DNA of 44,132 nt from an uncultured Gammaproteobacteria bacterium (GTDB lineage Bacteria > Pseudomonadota > Gammaproteobacteria > Magnimaribacterales > D2472), in the NCBI GenBank assembly GCA_964014565.1, contig CAXGZN010000003.1:1-44132 (forward strand). Direction: 5' to 3'. The notes beneath the pieces were generated by a model, which was not told the DNA's origin, did no database searches, and saw only the letters and a list, made by a program, of their open reading frames with translations. This document shows, piece by piece, positions 3,431 through 42,409 of the stretch (positions are counted from its first letter, which is position 1; each line of letters starts with the position of its first letter). Both the position numbers and the translations under genes were made by a program.

Positions 3431-4873
3431 TTAAGTGCCGCAAAATGTTACAAATGGTGTATTTGTTTCAGATGGCTTCTTAAAAGTTTCAGTATATTCA
3501 TTCTCATCAAAGGGATTTTTAAATAGCTCAAGAATTTCATTGATAAGATCCATATCGCCATTTACAGCATTTTCAAGTGCATCCTCAATGATATGATTCC
3601 TTGGGATATAACATGGATTAGTTAAATCCATTTTCTTTGTAATATCATTGAGATTGGTCTTTTCTGTAATAATTTTTATCATCCAATCTTGAGTCCACTT
3701 CTTGAAATCATCTGAATTTTTAAAAACTGAATCATCAATATTCTTTGTCTTGTTGAGAATTTTTGATAAGTCTCTAAAGGAAAGAGTGAAATCAATTGAA
3801 TTTGAATCTAATATTTTAAGATAATCTTTTAAAAGGTTAATATTGTTTTGATTTATCGAGTTAATACCTAGCTTTTCTCCCATTTCCGAGTAAAAGTATT
3901 TTTCGTAGGAAGGCATTATTGCTTGAAGAACTTCAGTTAATTTTTCAATTGATTTTTGCTCATTATCATCAATGAGGGGGATGAGAGCTTCAGCTAATTT
4001 AGAAAGATTCCAAACGAGGATTGCGGGTTGATTTCCGTAACAATACCTTCCTGCAACATCTATTGAGCTAAAAACTGTCTTTGGATCATAATAATCCATA
4101 AAAGCGCATGGCCCATAGTCAATCGTTTCTCCAGAAACAGTCATATTATCTGTATTCATAACGCCATGAATAAAGCCAATATTCATCCACTTAGAAACTA
4201 ATCTTGTCTGACTTTCACATACTGCAGCAAAAAACTTTATATATCTGTCATTGGTATTTTTTAATTCAGGGTAATGTCTAAGAATAGAGTAATCCGCTAA
4301 CTTTTTTAAGATCTGAGTGCCTTGCATAGCAGCAAACTCGAATGTACCTATTCTTATATGGCTATTAGCAACTCTTGCAAGAATGCCTCCAGGAAGCTCA
4401 GTGTCTCTCGTAACACTTTCATTAGTTTTTAAAGCAAGTAGTGCTCGAGTTGTTGGTATCCCAGCTGCATTCATGAATTCGCTTATTATGTATTCTCTTA
4501 ATACAGGACTTAGAGCAGATTTTCCGTCTCCCCTTCTAGAAAAAGGTGTTTGTCCAATACCTTTTAATTGAATATCTAGATTATTAATCTCTCCAAGCAA
4601 GATCGCTCTCCCATCACCAAGATTTGGATTAAATTGTCCAAATTGATGTCCAGAGTACGCTTGCGCAATAGGTATCGAATCTCTAAGTAATGCATTACCA
4701 CTGAAAACATTTAGACATTTTTCAGAGTCTAAGAACTTTTTACTAAAACCAAGCTCTTCGCCAAGTTCATAATTTTTAAGAATTATTTCAGAATTCTGGA
4801 ACCCGGAAGGAAAACACTTCTTTGATAACGCAGGTAAATCCTGGGCATAAGAATTCTTAAGGCCTGATTGCAT
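3431..4873 (-). CDS. selO: SelO/YdiU-family protein adenylyltransferase
   Basis: YSGHQFG, LGDGRA, QLKGIGQTPFSRRGDG, HGVMNTDN and IDYGP motifs; C-terminal TFCGT. Confidence 0.95.
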   Translation of the reverse strand: MQSGLKNSYAQDLPALSKKCFPSGFQNSEIILKNYELGEELGFSKKFLDSEKCLNVFSGNALLRDSIPIAQAYSGHQFGQFNPNLGDGRAILLGEINNLDIQLKGIGQTPFSRRGDGKSALSPVLREYIISEFMNAAGIPTTRALLALKTNESVTRDTELPGGILARVANSHIRIGTFEFAAMQGTQILKKLADYSILRHYPELKNTNDRYIKFFAAVCESQTRLVSKWMNIGFIHGVMNTDNMTVSGETIDYGPCAFMDYYDPKTVFSSIDVAGRYCYGNQPAILVWNLSKLAEALIPLIDDNEQKSIEKLTEVLQAIMPSYEKYFYSEMGEKLGINSINQNNINLLKDYLKILDSNSIDFTLSFRDLSKILNKTKNIDDSVFKNSDDFKKWTQDWMIKIITEKTNLNDITKKMDLTNPCYIPRNHIIEDALENAVNGDMDLINEILELFKNPFDENEYTETFKKPSETNTPFVTFCGT

Positions 4874-17350: not shown

Positions 17351-18738
17351 TCAAACTTACTGTACAGACCCTCCTCTGGGAGCCGGTCATCAGGAACAAA
17401 GTCTTCAAATCTTGCATACTGTTTTAAGAAGGTTAGGTAAGTTTTTCCAATTGGGCCATTTCTTTGTTTTCCAATAATTATCTCAGCTTTATTACCCTGA
17501 TCAGTATCCTCATTGTAAACTTCGTCTCTATAAATAAATAAGATTACATCTGCATCTTGCTCAATTGCTCCTGAATCTCTTAAATCAGCCATCATCGGTC
17601 TTTTGTCTGTTCTTTGCTCAACTGCCCTGTTTAGCTGTGATAGTGCTATGACAGGAACATTTAACTCTTTAGCCAAAGACTTTAAAGATCTTGAGATCTC
17701 AGAAATTTGATTTACACGATTTTCTAAAGATCCTGGGACCTGCATTAACTGTAAATAATCTACTACAATTAGTGAAAGCCCATTTGGCTCTTGTCTATTT
17801 ATTCTTCTTGCTCTAGCTCTCAGCTCCATAGGTGAAAGCAGAGAACTATCATCAATGTATAGAGGAAGTTCACGCAACCTTTTGCTTTGTTCAACAACCT
17901 GAGTTACCTGTTTATTATCAAGCTTTCCCGATCGAACATCCTGTTGGTCTAGTCTTGACATTCCTGAAAGTAATCTAGTAGTTAATGATTCTGCGGGCAT
18001 CTCAAGACTAAAGACAAGGACTGCTCCTGTGTTTTCATCATTCTGGACTAAAACATTTTCAGCTATATTCATTGCAAATGCAGTTTTACCCATACTCGGT
18101 CTTCCTGCTACAACAATCAGATCTCCATCTTGTAGTCCCTGTAATTTATTATCTATTGCTTTAAAACCAGTTGAGCTACCCAAAAGTTGAGAGCCGCTTT
18201 CAGCCAACTGATGAAGCCTATCAATCGATTTTGGTATTAATTCCTTCATAGAAAGAATGCTTGATTGAGATCTGTTAGCTTCATCATTTAAAGAAAATAT
18301 TTTTCTTTCAGCTTCATCGAGAAGACTAAAACCATCCATTCCCTGAGGATTATTTATTAATTCGGCAATCTCAGAATTTGCTTTCATGAGTTGTCTTGCT
18401 ACAGATCTTTGTCTGATAATTTCGGCATATGCCTCGAGGTTCGCTGCAGTTGGAGTCTCGGTTGCTAAAGATATAAGATAATCTTTACCTCCAATCTTAT
18501 TAAGAAGATTCTTACTATCAAGCTTTTCAGAAACTGTAAGTGGATCAAGTGGCTTATTCTCATTAATAAGCTCTCCCATGCTCTCAAAAATTAATTGGTG
18601 ATCTTTGCCATGGAAATCTTTATCAGAAATTTTGAGAATAACTGAATCAAATCTTTCAGTTTCCAACATTAGGCCACCTAAGACTGCTTTCTCTGCCTCT
18701 CTTGCTTGTTGGTTAAAACTGTTAGTTATTTCTGACAT
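17347..18738 (-). CDS. dnaB: Replicative DNA helicase
   Basis: GRPSMGKT, VDYLQLM, LSQLNR and DLRDSGAIEQDAD motifs. Confidence 0.99.
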   Translation of the reverse strand: MSEITNSFNQQAREAEKAVLGGLMLETERFDSVILKISDKDFHGKDHQLIFESMGELINENKPLDPLTVSEKLDSKNLLNKIGGKDYLISLATETPTAANLEAYAEIIRQRSVARQLMKANSEIAELINNPQGMDGFSLLDEAERKIFSLNDEANRSQSSILSMKELIPKSIDRLHQLAESGSQLLGSSTGFKAIDNKLQGLQDGDLIVVAGRPSMGKTAFAMNIAENVLVQNDENTGAVLVFSLEMPAESLTTRLLSGMSRLDQQDVRSGKLDNKQVTQVVEQSKRLRELPLYIDDSSLLSPMELRARARRINRQEPNGLSLIVVDYLQLMQVPGSLENRVNQISEISRSLKSLAKELNVPVIALSQLNRAVEQRTDKRPMMADLRDSGAIEQDADVILFIYRDEVYNEDTDQGNKAEIIIGKQRNGPIGKTYLTFLKQYARFEDFVPDDRLPEEGLYSKFE

Positions 18739-38883: not shown

Positions 38884-39675
38884 CTAGTGATAGTCTTTTT
38901 GATATTCTCTGTAGAGAAGCGCAGAAAGAAATGTAAATATAATAAAGAATATTATCGCATATACTCCCATTCTTTCCCTTTCCGCCCTGCTAGGCTCACC
39001 TACATATGTCAAAAAATTTGTGAGATCATATATAAATTCATCAAACTCTTCAACATTTAACAATCCTGAGCCATCTTGATGTTTGAGGTAGCCACACTTT
39101 TCTTTAGTGATAGTGTTTCCAAATTCATCTCTCTTTTCACCGCCGTTCTTTGCTAAAACAGGTATCTCTTTGCAACCAAGTTTTTGGTTGCCTTGAATTG
39201 GAGCCAAAATATTTGGCATATTTACTCCTGGATAAACAAGATTATTAGATCCATAAGTAGTTGAAGAATCATCATAAAAAGCTCTTAAATAAGTGTAAAC
39301 CCAGCTTGAAGTTCTTTTTCTTGCAACTAAAGTTAAATCAGGAGGAGCGTTATCAATTTCTAATTCATGAATAGGGGCAACCATTAAATCAAATGGTCCC
39401 GCATCCTGATCTGGAACAAGATATTCAAAGAAAATGTCTTCGGGTATTTGAAGATCATTGGCAACCCTTCCCCATCGAGAATATTTCAGTGAATGGCAGC
39501 TATAGCAGTATTTCATAAATGTTCCCACTCCTCTTTGAAGAGAAGCCATATTATTCAAATCTGGCTTAAACTGATCACAGTCTCCATAGTCTTTACATGG
39601 ACCTCCTTCAGCTGAATTTAAAGAAGGAGCAACAGAGAAAGATAAAAAACTTATAATTAATATTGATTTAATCAC
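38884..39675 (-). CDS. petC: Cytochrome c1
   Basis: SLQRG, CYSCH heme motif, PPDL, MP axial ligand and C-terminal TM anchor. Confidence 0.96.
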   Translation of the reverse strand: MIKSILIISFLSFSVAPSLNSAEGGPCKDYGDCDQFKPDLNNMASLQRGVGTFMKYCYSCHSLKYSRWGRVANDLQIPEDIFFEYLVPDQDAGPFDLMVAPIHELEIDNAPPDLTLVARKRTSSWVYTYLRAFYDDSSTTYGSNNLVYPGVNMPNILAPIQGNQKLGCKEIPVLAKNGGEKRDEFGNTITKEKCGYLKHQDGSGLLNVEEFDEFIYDLTNFLTYVGEPSRAERERMGVYAIIFFIIFTFLSALLYREYQKDYH

Positions 39676-40880
39676 AATCTATCTGGCACCTCATGTGTTT
39701 TTTCAATACTTGTGTAGATAGGCATCAAAAGGAAAAAGGCAAAATACATGACAGTGCATATTACTGACATGATTTTACCAGTCTCAGTAACAGTGACTGT
39801 TCCCAAATACCCTAATGTAATAAAGCTTACAACAAATAAAACTATCGCAATCTTACTCAATATTCCTTTGTAACGTATTGATGCCACATTACTTCTATCT
39901 AACCAAGGAACAACAAATAATATTGCTACAGCTGCTGCCATAACTATTAGTCCTCCTAAAGGATCTGGAATAGCTCTTAGCATTGTGTAATATGGGGCGT
40001 AATACCATACAGGAGCAATATGTTCTGGTGTAACCAGCGGGTTTGCCTCTTCAAAATTCGCTAATTCAAGAAAATACCCTCCGCCTTCAGGAAAGAAAAA
40101 CATAATTATGCAAAAAACTAAACCAAAAACACCAATTGCAGGCATTGCACTTAAAACCTTGTATGGGAAAAAAGGTACGCTATCCAAAGGGACCCCATCT
40201 TCATCAATATATTCTTCAATATCTACTCCTTCGGGATTCCCAGCTCCAACTTCATGAAGAGCAACAAGATGAAGAAATACAAGTGCAATTAATATCAGAG
40301 GGAGTGCAACAACATGAAGGGCAAAAAACCTAGAAATTGTAATCCCAGAAATGTAATAGTCGCCTCGAACCCAAACTTCAAGTGATTCTCCAATGTATGG
40401 TATTGCTCCAAAAAGAGAAATTATTACTTGAGCTCCCCAATAAGACATTTGACCATATGGGAGAACATAACCTAAAAAACCTTCCGCCATCATCACTAAA
40501 TAAATTGTCATTCCAAAAATCCAAACTAATTCTTTTGGTTTCTTGTAGGATCCATACAAGAGACCTCTAAACATGTGCAAATATACTATTGCAAAGAACA
40601 TCGATGCTCCTGTTGTATGCATATATCTTATGATCCACCCATAATCTACATCTCTCATGATGTATTCAATGGAAGCAAATGCTCCCTCTTCAGTATTTGA
40701 ATAAGGCATCATCAACCAAATACCTGTAACTATTTGCAGAATAAGGACAATTGAAGCAAGGGCTCCAAAAAGATACCAAAAGTTAACTTTTTTGGGAACA
40801 GGATGCTTCGAAAGATGCCTTTCAAATGTATTTATAATAGGCAGTCTGTAGTTAATCCAATTTAGAACCTTTGTTACCAT
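39672..40880 (-). CDS. petB: Cytochrome b of the bc1 complex
   Basis: IMRDVDYGWIIRYMH, GQMSYWGAQVI, RFFALH and PVWY motifs. Confidence 0.98.
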   Translation of the reverse strand: MVTKVLNWINYRLPIINTFERHLSKHPVPKKVNFWYLFGALASIVLILQIVTGIWLMMPYSNTEEGAFASIEYIMRDVDYGWIIRYMHTTGASMFFAIVYLHMFRGLLYGSYKKPKELVWIFGMTIYLVMMAEGFLGYVLPYGQMSYWGAQVIISLFGAIPYIGESLEVWVRGDYYISGITISRFFALHVVALPLILIALVFLHLVALHEVGAGNPEGVDIEEYIDEDGVPLDSVPFFPYKVLSAMPAIGVFGLVFCIIMFFFPEGGGYFLELANFEEANPLVTPEHIAPVWYYAPYYTMLRAIPDPLGGLIVMAAAVAILFVVPWLDRSNVASIRYKGILSKIAIVLFVVSFITLGYLGTVTVTETGKIMSVICTVMYFAFFLLMPIYTSIEKTHEVPDRL

Positions 40881-41749
40881 TATGCTTCTTCTCCAATTGT
40901 TAAAATGCTCCCCTCAAAAAAATGAGGTGGTACAGTTAAATTAGTAGGTGCTGGAACACCTTTATAAACTCTCCCAACTAAATCAAACATTGAACCATGA
41001 CATGGGCAGAAAAAACCACCTGACCAAGAGGAATCCCATGGCTTTGGCTCAACTTCAGGATAATATTTAGGTGAGCACCCTAAATGAGTGCAAACTCCTG
41101 ATAAAACCGAATATTCTGAGCTTAAAGATCTAGTGGAATTAATGTTTTTGTATGGCTCATCAATATCATCTGAATTAGGATCAGCTAGTTTTGAGATTAC
41201 AGAACTCAAACCCGACAATGCAGATTTAGAATGTCTAATTATTAAAATAGGTTGTTTTCTCCATGAAACTTGAATTTGTTGACCAATCATCATTTTAGAT
41301 ACATCAACTTTCACCGCAGAGCCAATTGCTTTAGCTCTTGCGCTTGGGTTCCATGTAGTTATGAAAGGAGTAGCAGCAAAAGCCACACCGGCGGCAGCAA
41401 ATCCGGAAGTTAAACCAATCAATACTTTTCTTCTACCCTGATCTGGAACACTACTAAGACTTTCAGTAAGTTTATTAAGAGGTAACTTAACGTTAATACC
41501 AAAGCTCTCAAAAATATTCAGAAAATGCTGACTTAATTCTGATAAATCAGCCTTTTCGAGTTCGTCTAGTGCAGAAATAAGTTCGTCTCTTCTTAAAATT
41601 GCTTCATCTAAAACCTTAGTTTTCAAAGAAGTTTTTACAAAACTAGTCCCAATGACCTCTGCAACCTTTTCACTAACTCTTTTTTGAAAGAAATAAATAT
41701 CATTATTAGCTCCTCTAAGAGTTAGGTATTTTTCTATGGTATCAGACAT
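40880..41749 (-). CDS. petA: Rieske Fe-S subunit with ~100-aa N-terminal DUF6538-like domain
   Basis: CTHLGC and CPCHGS motifs; Tat-like GRRKVL plus TM at aa 105-130; extra N-terminal domain. Confidence 0.93.
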   Translation of the reverse strand: MSDTIEKYLTLRGANNDIYFFQKRVSEKVAEVIGTSFVKTSLKTKVLDEAILRRDELISALDELEKADLSELSQHFLNIFESFGINVKLPLNKLTESLSSVPDQGRRKVLIGLTSGFAAAGVAFAATPFITTWNPSARAKAIGSAVKVDVSKMMIGQQIQVSWRKQPILIIRHSKSALSGLSSVISKLADPNSDDIDEPYKNINSTRSLSSEYSVLSGVCTHLGCSPKYYPEVEPKPWDSSWSGGFFCPCHGSMFDLVGRVYKGVPAPTNLTVPPHFFEGSILTIGEEA

Positions 41750-41930
41750 TTCTTAAGGTTGATAAGTAGTTAAATGGCAGTAATTTAAGGTCTAGATTGA
41801 GCTTGTACCCATATGGTAAAAAAATAGTACTCACAGCAGAATAAATAAAAAAGATTCTTACACTGTAAAAAATGTAAAAAGATATAAAAAAACCTTTCAA
41901 ATTAGGGTATTTTATTATCAATGTACCCAT
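41742..41930 (-). CDS. Possible small hydrophobic ORF upstream of petA
   Basis: 62 codons, AAGGAAG 3 nt before ATG, 8-nt overlap with the petA start. May be a chance ORF in AT-rich DNA. Confidence 0.25.
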   Translation of the reverse strand: MGTLIIKYPNLKGFFISFYIFYSVRIFFIYSAVSTIFLPYGYKLNLDLKLLPFNYLSTLRNV

Positions 41931-41998
41931 ATACTTCCTTTTTTATATTGTTAAAGTACGCACAATATAATATAAAAAAATAGATAATGGAAGTATAT
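41804..41998. repeat. 11-bp direct repeat plus nested inverted repeats in the rpsI-petA spacer
   Basis: TGTACCCATAT at 41804-41814 and 41922-41932; ATATACTTCC (41929-41938)/GGAAGTATAT (41989-41998); TTATATTGT (41943-41951)/ACAATATAA (41962-41970). Confidence 0.7.
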
Positions 41999-42016
41999 TT
42001 CGGTAATAAATTAGAT

Positions 42017-42409
42017 CTATCTTTTTGAAAATTGCGAGCTCTTTCTTGCCTTCTTTAAACCAGGCTTTTTTCGCTCTACCTTTCTTGAATCTCTTGTAAG
42101 GAATCCAGCTTTTTTTAGCTGCGGTCTTAGCTCTTCATCAAGTAGTAAAAGAGCCCTAGAGATACCATGTCTGATTGCTCCTGCTTGACCAAAACTGCCT
42201 CCACCCTTAACTTTTGCAACTATGTCAACTTTATCAATTAAGTTACACAACTCAAGCGGTTGCTTAACAAGCATTTGAGCCACTTCTCTTCCAAAGTAGT
42301 CGGAAAGCTCTTTATTGTTTACCTTAATTGATCCTTCGCCTTGAGATAAATATATTCTTGCTGAAGATGTTTTCCTTCTTCCGGTTGCATAAAGTCTTTC
42401 ACTGCTCAT
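42017..42409 (-). CDS. rpsI: 30S ribosomal protein S9
   Basis: [23 protein letters not shown] and QFSKR motifs. Start 42409 overlaps the rplM stop (ATGA). Confidence 0.98.

Follow-up and report, generated by a model that had tools for sequence, protein, structure and literature searches.

The stretch of DNA analysed here (the window) comprises 44,132 nucleotides (nt) of an uncultured gammaproteobacterium of the lineage Magnimaribacterales; D2472 (GenBank assembly GCA_964014565.1, contig CAXGZN010000003.1), which belongs to a genus of marine bacteria with small genomes. On its minus strand, the window carries a zapE-like gene, rplM, rpsI, a spacer of 267 nt, petA, petB, and petC, in that order. 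The petA gene encodes the Rieske iron-sulfur subunit of the cytochrome bc1 complex, and in this genome the Rieske protein is preceded by an N-terminal extension that resembles DUF6538, a domain also found at the N-terminus of tyrosine integrases. An earlier note on this DNA, made from the sequence alone, had drawn attention to this fusion. Here, the architecture, conservation, and relatives of the fused protein are described together with a set of short direct repeats in the spacer ahead of its gene, and a possible function of the extension is considered.

Architecture of the fused Rieske protein

As the earlier note had stated from the open reading frame (ORF) and its translation, PetA is 289 amino acids (aa) long and its twin arginines lie at R106-R107, within GRRKVL; positions 41450-41749 encode aa 1-100. 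From aa 105 on, PetA was an ordinary proteobacterial Rieske protein (TIGR01416, aa 105-285, 191.2 bits versus a cutoff of 97.4), with Pfam matches to UCR_Fe-S_N at aa 103-136 and to Rieske at aa 210-272 and with both of the 2Fe-2S cluster-binding boxes, CTHLGC and CPCHGS. By its equivalog score, its ligand boxes, and the presence of petB and petC downstream, the protein belongs to the bc1 Rieske subunits. A tatC gene, for twin-arginine translocation (Tat), was found in all four genomes of the genus that were tested for it, that of the window included.

The only in-frame ATG, GTG, or TTG codons ahead of the twin arginines are M1 and a TTG at codon 42, and the next methionine is M153. Therefore, the extension cannot be skipped by any ordinary start, as had been proposed, and no internal start codon was conserved across ten same-genus genomes. 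The petA starts of the genus mostly lacked a purine-rich ribosome-binding sequence, that of the window having AAGAA just before the ATG; AGG or AAGG was seen at about -6 to -9 in several petA starts of sister genera.

Conservation of and selection on the extension

A total of 41 related genomes, 11 from the same genus and 30 from other genera and families, were searched with the PetA protein. A full-length, stop-free match at 70-100% identity was obtained in the window's genome and in nine others of the genus (10/11), and no petA match was obtained in the eleventh, which is 79% complete. In the 30 genomes from outside the genus, the match to PetA began only at residue 76-105. The PetA proteins of other genera start about ten residues before the twin arginines, and the RRKVLIGLT segment of the fused anchor corresponds to the N-terminus of the short PetA of sister genera. 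Thus, the extension was present in 10/10 same-genus genomes with a petA match and in 0/30 of the others. When 5.8 billion protein clusters were searched with aa 1-100, 367 clusters matched; among the 120 of these that were listed, 115 were 288-292 aa in length and five were 161-228 aa. Where database names were given for the fused protein, they referred to the iron-sulfur subunit only. Two metagenome proteins departed from the usual plan (P0080/P0112): one of 202 aa, in which the linker was joined straight to the middle of the Rieske domain without the twin-arginine anchor, and one of 161 aa, which read in frame from repeat site 2 (Table 1) into the domain and then suffered a frameshift. These variants may be assembly errors or broken alleles.

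Ratios of nonsynonymous to synonymous substitution rates (dN/dS) were calculated by the Nei-Gojobori method as medians over 45 pairs of the 10 loci. The median was 0.073 for the domain (aa 1-62), 0.51 for the linker (aa 63-101), 0.059 for the signal anchor (aa 102-135), and 0.025 for the Rieske body (aa 136-289); many of the pairs were saturated at synonymous sites, and less diverged pairs gave 0.02-0.13 for the domain. The domain is under purifying selection, and the linker is relaxed. Single contigs from the metatranscriptomic libraries of two studies ran from the extension through the junction into the Rieske body (X15 record 9, positions 40700-41932; X17 record 19, 40700-41948; X16 record 12, 40700-41716). 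With the junction supported by 10 genomes, by metagenome clusters, and by RNA-library contigs, it was confirmed that the fusion is genuine and not an assembly artefact and that the extension is obligatory.

DUF6538 identity and relatives of the N-terminal domain

On the whole PetA protein, DUF6538 (Pfam PF20172; gathering score, 27 bits) matched aa 12-63 at 25.2 bits (E value [expect value], 1.3e-5), which is below the gathering score. The isolated N-terminus exceeded it, at 27.8 bits (105 aa) and 28.9 bits (75 aa), as did the petA N-terminus in a six-frame scan of the genome, where it was the sole DUF6538 match (28.2 bits). All 30 ESM Atlas feature matches were DUF6538 clusters (top score, 0.95), and 15/15 aligned relatives of the domain matched DUF6538, so that the likeness noticed from the sequence alone was upheld by profile searches. 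In the full-text literature, no paper with the term DUF6538 was found. The sequence itself appears to follow an alternating hydrophobic pattern and then a helix-like stretch.

When the 105-aa N-terminus was searched exhaustively with HMMER against 1.84 billion representatives, only 45 proteins were found at an E value of ≤0.001, and these fell into four groups, i.e., fused PetA, many proteins of 140-221 aa, one protein of 451 aa, and one chimera of 194 aa. The short proteins consist of the domain, an Asn/Asp/Glu-rich low-complexity linker of variable length, and a C-terminal hydrophobic helix; they are predicted to be tail-anchored membrane proteins with the domain facing the cytoplasm. Two longer proteins, the one of 451 aa and another of 441 aa encoded by a same-family genome, have DUF6538 (37 bits), then a SAM-like domain and Phage_integrase and, judged by this domain content, are tyrosine integrases. 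The same order was found in 23/23 integrase relatives. Hence, the link between DUF6538 and tyrosine recombinases stated in the earlier note held for the two local integrases and for these relatives. In related integrases the domain is N-terminal to the core-binding and catalytic domains, and this recombinase part is absent from PetA. The PetA domain was 44-50% identical to the stand-alone proteins and 36-42% identical to the integrase-type N-termini, and nine residues (K7, Y8, N15, Q22, R24, S41, T44, R54, and D55) were near-invariant in 10 fused, 23 stand-alone, and 3 integrase-type sequences; the DNA motif described below was likewise shared.

The distribution of the domain was determined with a profile (alignment A1) in 139 genomes of the family. 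In the window's genus (g1), the domain was fused to PetA in 10/11 genomes, in one copy each and with no stand-alone copy. The stand-alone form, with open frames of 119-210 codons, occurred in 53 genomes across five other genera (g5, 36/41; g7, 7/9, plus one degraded copy; g8, 3/9; g9, 4/32; and g6, 3/25), the integrase form occurred in the single genome of g3 (1/1), and none was found in g4 (0/7), g2 (0/1), or g10 (0/3). Fused and stand-alone copies never occurred together in one genome.

In a tree of 33 N-domains, the fused sequences formed one clade (support, 100/100) on a long stem. Because the root of this tree is unreliable, with long branches meeting, the order from integrase to stand-alone protein to fusion is one that we infer. 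The rpsI-petA spacer measured 231-267 nt in 10 same-genus loci versus 40-99 nt in nine sister-genus loci; therefore, some 450-500 nt, made up of noncoding DNA, the domain, and the linker, was inserted ahead of the twin-arginine codons. In the simplest history, the domain would not have come directly from an integrase. Rather, a stand-alone, tail-anchored module would have moved in between rpsI and petA, and the Rieske signal anchor would have taken over from the module's own tail anchor. A kinase-like neighbour of a stand-alone gene was not found in five same-genus genomes with the query used, and no relatives of the integrase were found among viral contigs.

Direct repeats upstream of petA and of other genes of the domain family

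Alignment of nine same-genus rpsI-petA spacers revealed four conserved islands in otherwise free sequence, each holding one copy of approximately (A/G)TG(G/A/C)GTAC (Table 1). Exactly four copies were present in 10/10 same-genus spacers, all on the petA strand and none on the other strand, and no copies were found in nine sister-genus rpsI-petA spacers. The site-to-site spacings are 33, 96, and 22 nt in the window and were 32-33, 96-97, and 22 nt across the genus, except that the last spacing was 30 nt in the most divergent same-genus genome. Column identity was 0.85-0.90 in the motif versus 0.51-0.58 in the rest of the spacer. A 9-nt inverted repeat on the minus strand (TATACTTCC at 41989-41997 and GGAAGTATA at 41930-41938) brackets site 1 and abuts site 2, and both of its arms lie in conserved blocks of the same-genus alignment.

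A motif with a family-wide consensus close to TATG(G/A)GTACA was found upstream of every gene of the domain family that was examined. Nine stand-alone genes, from five genera and three different genomic neighbourhoods, all had two to five same-strand copies within 135 nt upstream and none on the opposite strand; a copy was often placed at -11, and the start codon itself began a further copy. Both integrase genes had two copies upstream, of which one lay within a TTGACT-17-TATAAT promoter-like site and the other immediately behind it. Likewise, site 1 of petA directly follows a TATATT hexamer, an arrangement like that of the integrase promoter (TATAAT, then the site) and of several stand-alone genes. 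Adjacent spacings clustered at 10-11, 19-23, 29-33, 39-44, 52, 63, and 96 nt, and the best-fitting period was 10.5-10.7 bp (resultant R, 0.76-0.91; n = 41). Given this helical period, the copies therefore lie on one face of the helix, a phasing that would be needed by a DNA-binding protein and not by upstream ORFs or RNA structures.

A strict pair, defined as two TGRGTACA copies 8-45 nt apart, was then searched for in the 139 family genomes and was present in 60 of them, compared to five matches in all for a reversed-pattern control. In g9 and g6, the pair-bearing genomes were the four and three domain-positive ones, respectively, plus one doubtful extra in g9. Pair matches in G095 (a coding AWVQ repeat) and in G018 (inside an ORF and without the ATG prefix) were treated as chance. 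Of the 53 stand-alone genes, 43 had a strict pair directly upstream on their own strand, nine had none, and one was undecided among the matches listed; in two of the nine (L025 and L028), copies were present outside the strict pattern. A comparison by hand gave 56 genomes with both domain and pair, 8 with the domain only, 4 with the pair only, and 71 with neither, counts that overstate independence because the genomes are related. Since most pairs sit upstream of the domain's own gene, the comparison mainly shows that motif and gene form one cassette. As to short sequences alone, TGGGTAC was not clearly enriched in the window (4 found versus 1.13 expected, with 1/100 shuffles reaching 4), and the 8- to 9-mer motif was not enriched genome-wide, so that only clusters were informative. 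A search of the spacer against Rfam yielded chance-level matches only, all far below gathering scores.

The spacer also holds an upstream ORF of uncertain status (Table 1). The equivalent frame was open for 45-62 codons in 8/9 same-genus loci, ending at -23 to +8 of the petA start, and shuffled sequences reached the length of the ORF in 1.6-7.5% of trials per locus. No Pfam family matched the ORF. Over its first 22 codons, the ORF aligned with the beginning of the domain in the same register (hhalign probability, 9%; E value, 0.0036); it may have arisen as a duplicate of the domain gene that has since decayed, or it may be a leader ORF that is translationally coupled.

Table 1. Features of the pet locus in the window
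Feature	Position	Strand	Basis
petA, fused Rieske subunit, 289 aa, stop codon included	40880..41749	minus	ORF and family matches; full-length frame conserved in 10/11 same-genus genomes
PetA aa 1-62, DUF6538-type domain (integrase arm-binding type), expected to be cytoplasmic	41564..41749	minus	Pfam, dN/dS, identity to relatives
PetA aa 63-101, variable acidic linker	41447..41563	minus	dN/dS median 0.51; near-constant length, freely varying sequence
PetA aa 102-135, twin-arginine motif (R106 R107) and predicted uncleaved signal-anchor helix	41345..41446	minus	UCR_Fe-S_N aa 103-136; dN/dS 0.059
PetA aa 136-289, predicted periplasmic Rieske 2Fe-2S domain	40883..41344	minus	TIGR01416 and PF00355; CTHLGC and CPCHGS; dN/dS 0.025
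Enlarged rpsI-petA spacer, 267 nt, holding the four repeat sites	41750..42016	minus	Spacer length and motif comparison across genera
Repeat site 1 (GTGCGTAC), -214 from petA ATG	41956..41963	minus	In the most conserved spacer block of nine aligned same-genus spacers
Repeat site 2 (ATGGGTACA), -181	41922..41930	minus	Spacer alignment and motif scan
Repeat site 3 (GTGAGTAC), -85	41827..41834	minus	Spacer alignment and motif scan
Repeat site 4 (ATGGGTACA), -63	41804..41812	minus	Spacer alignment and motif scan
Upstream ORF, 62 codons, from the ATG of site 2 to 8 nt inside petA; status uncertain	41742..41930	minus	Frame comparison
petB, Cytochrome_B family, bc1 operon	39672-40880	minus	Pfam
petC, Cytochrom_C1 family, bc1 operon	38884-39675	minus	Pfam

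Motif clusters away from the domain's own gene

Motif copies at a distance from the gene are more telling as to whether a factor works in trans. The only other same-strand cluster in the window's genome (G000) was a pair at positions 18238-18264 (minus strand) of contig C5, at the 3' end of an acyltransferase gene and facing the end of gyrB. A near-identical acyltransferase/gyrB pair was present in nine other same-genus genomes, and among the matches listed there was none for G006, the most divergent same-genus genome, at this locus. About 5.5 kb separates the pair of the window's genome from a yidC-dnaA gap with a perfect DnaA box; GC (guanine-cytosine) skew on the 37-kb contig did not settle the position of the origin. 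The glyS gene, next to the acyltransferase gene, contained three internal copies in four domain-positive genomes of g5 and g6 (L034, L035, L037, and L040), written with GTA-CAA and GTA-CCC codons. Five domain-negative genomes (four of g6 and one of g4) had no copies in glyS and encoded similar residues (W-V-Q and G-V-P in several of them) with other codons. One g6 genome had three further copies in the dnaN-recF gap. In G006, where the fused PetA was the only DUF6538 protein found, a four-copy array (L052, positions 3655-3756, minus strand; spacings of 30, 42, and 29 nt) precedes genes of 81 and 124 aa without a Pfam family, next to lipA.

A possible role of the domain and the alternatives to it

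PetA thus consists of a DUF6538 domain, a flexible linker of about 40 aa, a predicted uncleaved twin-arginine anchor, and a predicted periplasmic Rieske domain, a combination that is kept by selection. In bacterial Rieske proteins, the Tat signal anchor is not cleaved, and the N-terminus ahead of it remains in the cytoplasm. Because of this known topology the extension would remain cytoplasmic, and PetA would therefore be a FecR-like (class V) Tat substrate. The module would have brought its own DNA target, the same-strand array of approximately ATG(G/A)GTACA on one helix face, and the domain would bind these repeats while the precursor is still in the cytoplasm, once it is in the membrane, or at both stages. 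Such binding could autoregulate petABC transcription, and our best guess is repression, which is favoured because of the -10-like hexamer that site 1 abuts, an arrangement shared with the integrase promoter and several stand-alone genes. Tat export is post-translational, and therefore the domain would be free in the cytoplasm near its own gene until the iron-sulfur domain had been folded and exported, so that a backlog of precursor would lower petABC transcription; after export, the domain could still reach DNA from its membrane position by way of the linker of some 40 residues. That the domain binds the four repeats and autoregulates petABC is, in our estimate, about an even chance. A broader proposal, which we advance tentatively and hold to be doubtful, is that this marine lineage has domesticated the arm-binding domains of integrases, making of them a new class of DNA-binding proteins that are sequence specific and tethered to the membrane, the tether in one genus being the Rieske subunit itself. 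On this view, PetA would serve in respiration and also act as a transcription factor, with precursor awaiting iron-sulfur insertion and Tat export throttling petABC via four operators and with assembled bc1 holding the pet locus and sites near dnaA at the energy-transducing membrane.

Several observations weigh against DNA binding and autoregulation by the fused domain. The fused clade has lost five basic residues (K14A, K16N, K27E, K35T, and R51I) at positions where almost every stand-alone protein and the majority of integrase-type sequences carry one. Across the 56-aa core, net charge was +2.3 in fused sequences (n = 10) versus +7.0 in stand-alone (n = 23) and +8.7 in integrase-type sequences (n = 3), and the fused clade sits on a long stem branch; the affinity of the fused domain may have been tuned down or its function may have shifted. 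The domain profile had no match among PDB sequences at E values up to 10, and the full integrase matched there in its catalytic domain only. In hhalign comparisons the domain aligned with the N-terminus of lambda Int at a probability of 0.2%, with that of P4 Int at 3.4% (E value, 0.013; 56 columns in the expected register, sharing a helix motif around A-R-x-K-R-D-E), and with a P4-type alignment at 2%. No Arm-DNA-bind family matched the PetA N-terminus at E values up to 10. Thus, the profile check of the N-terminus yielded similarity to DUF6538, and no detectable sequence relationship to known arm-binding families (clan CL0081 type) was found. A scan of positions 41300-42200 for sigma-70 promoters and terminators found 2 promoter-like sites versus 3.0 expected from shuffles. 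RNA-library contigs show neither the start or end of a transcript nor the absence of carried-over DNA; the ends of two such contigs at 41932 and 41948, together with a bin of the spacer without RNA-contig cover in X17 (41981-42041), hint only weakly, if at all, at transcription starting near site 1. The relatedness of the genomes in the co-occurrence counts belongs here as well. Another factor could bind the repeats, which would travel with the gene as its promoter. Finally, every repeat copy begins with a possible start codon, the upstream copies are all on the sense strand, and the upstream ORF stays open, so a role of the spacer region in translation, alongside DNA binding, is possible.

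These observations bear on two alternatives, each of which we regard as unlikely. The domain might not bind DNA at all and might instead be a cytoplasmic interaction or folding module, for instance one that holds the precursor until iron-sulfur insertion or serves Tat targeting or bc1 assembly, in which case some other factor would read the repeats as elements of the promoter or of translation. The lost basic residues, the long branch after fusion, and the lack of significant similarity to known DNA-binding arm domains speak for this possibility, as do the start codons in the repeats, the upstream ORF that ends at the petA start, and a petA start without the AGG-type ribosome-binding sequence of several sister-genus loci. 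Set against it are the four sites conserved in the genus with their helical phasing kept, the retention of residues common to stand-alone proteins and integrases, and the four-site array of G006, which stands before unrelated genes in a genome whose only DUF6538 protein is PetA. Alternatively, the domain might bind the repeats mainly as a tether of the pet locus, and of sites a few kilobases from dnaA-dnaN-recF-gyrB, to the inner membrane, with the stand-alone form doing likewise and with bc1 serving only as the anchor in g1. Both forms are predicted to be membrane anchored, and clusters within glyS, at the 3' end of the acyltransferase gene, and in the dnaN-recF gap occupy places where regulation is unlikely, the pair in the window's genome lying about 5.5 kb from the gap with a perfect DnaA box. 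Nevertheless, the origin position was not settled by GC skew, and most copies lie directly upstream of the domain's own gene over promoter-like hexamers, which is the classic layout of autoregulation. The domain is also missing from many family genomes, and hence its function is not essential.

It is very improbable that the extension is what is left, without function, of an integrated element, or that the gene call is wrong and translation begins near the twin arginines. Chimeras of an integrase N-terminus with a neighbouring gene do exist, e.g., P0162, which joins DUF6538 to a SpoU methylase fragment. A relic is at odds with a dN/dS of 0.07 in the domain compared to 0.5 in the adjoining linker, with a frame that is open in 10/10 genomes and has no conserved internal start codon, and with metagenome variants that are of the fused length in 115 of the 120 clusters listed. 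Returning to the preferred interpretation, in which the domain would bind the repeats, the idea of an autoregulator or nucleoid tether put forward in the earlier note gained strong, though indirect, support from the four conserved, phased repeats within the very spacer that it had singled out (41750-42016) and from the motif before every domain gene examined, and it was weakened by the loss of about five basic residues.

Comparison with known systems

Membrane-bound one-component regulators of the ToxR/CadC type bind promoters from the membrane by means of a winged-helix domain and have a sensory periplasmic domain. PetA would resemble them as a bitopic protein with a cytoplasmic N-terminal (candidate) DNA-binding domain, a linker, one transmembrane helix, and a periplasmic domain. 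The periplasmic domain of PetA, unlike theirs, is a redox enzyme subunit, and its stand-alone relatives have no periplasmic domain. PutA, an enzyme that feeds the respiratory chain, has an N-terminal DNA-binding domain and represses its own operon, with membrane association competing with DNA binding. The precursor-backlog logic proposed here resembles that of PutA, whereas PutA is a peripheral flavoenzyme with a ribbon-helix-helix domain and PetA is an integral bc1 subunit predicted to be exported by Tat.

Arm-binding (AB) domains are described in the literature as variable modules of three strands and one helix that bind arm sites, which are short direct repeats. The AB domains of tyrosine integrases (lambda Int, Tn916 Int, and the P4/SXT-type DUF4102) and the DUF6538 domain are alike in being about 60 aa long, in standing N-terminal to the core-binding and catalytic domains in related integrases, and in having short direct repeats beside the gene, including over the int promoter, the sites described here being candidates identified in silico. 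They differ in that the PetA domain is detached from the recombinase and joined to a membrane anchor and in that it has no significant similarity to the lambda or P4 AB domains. Class V Tat substrates such as FecR have, according to a 2026 review, a folded cytoplasmic domain before an internal, uncleaved Tat signal. PetA is predicted to have the layout of FecR, in that its N-terminal domain would stay in the cytoplasm, its internal twin-arginine anchor would be left uncleaved, and its C-terminal domain would be exported; thus, the kind of Tat substrate that had been called unusual has a precedent in that review. FecR exports a sensor domain and its cytoplasmic part is an anti-sigma domain, whereas PetA exports the Rieske subunit and its cytoplasmic part is of the integrase type. 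The Rieske proteins of actinobacteria (QcrA) and Streptomyces, which are assigned to class IV, also have an internal Tat signal, in their case preceded by two Sec-inserted transmembrane helices, in contrast to the soluble domain of PetA. None of these closest known systems joins a respiratory-complex subunit with a DNA-binding module, and each ingredient has precedent. Literature listings on SAR86 with Rieske contained nothing relevant, and no report of a bc1 Rieske protein with a nucleic-acid-binding domain was found.

The bc1 Rieske protein is among the most conserved and best-studied membrane proteins, and the combination is unexpected there. To the rare Tat substrates whose signal is preceded by a folded domain, it would add a natural Rieske example. 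Should the domain bind the repeats, there would be direct feedback from the biogenesis of a respiratory complex to the transcription of its own operon in an abundant ocean bacterium with very few regulators. An uncharacterised Pfam family would also gain a function and a candidate DNA motif, and the locus would be a clean case of a mobile-element domain domesticated together with its binding sites. The four named sites and the 62-aa domain make the prediction directly testable.

Further DUF6538 proteins and possible integration sites

In the 194-aa metagenome protein (P0162), the domain is joined to a fragment of a SpoU methylase. In g7 genomes (L036 and L043), motif pairs flank variable islands beside a trmJ-like SpoU methylase gene; these pairs look like the remains of attachment sites, which would fit the 194-aa chimera. 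Together, the islands beside trmJ and P0162 suggest an integration hot spot for the integrase family. In six genomes of g9 and g8 (G046, G060, G061, G070, G076, and G090), frames of 667-674 codons matched the domain profile weakly (E values, 1e-4 to 2e-5) and may represent another type of DUF6538-bearing protein.

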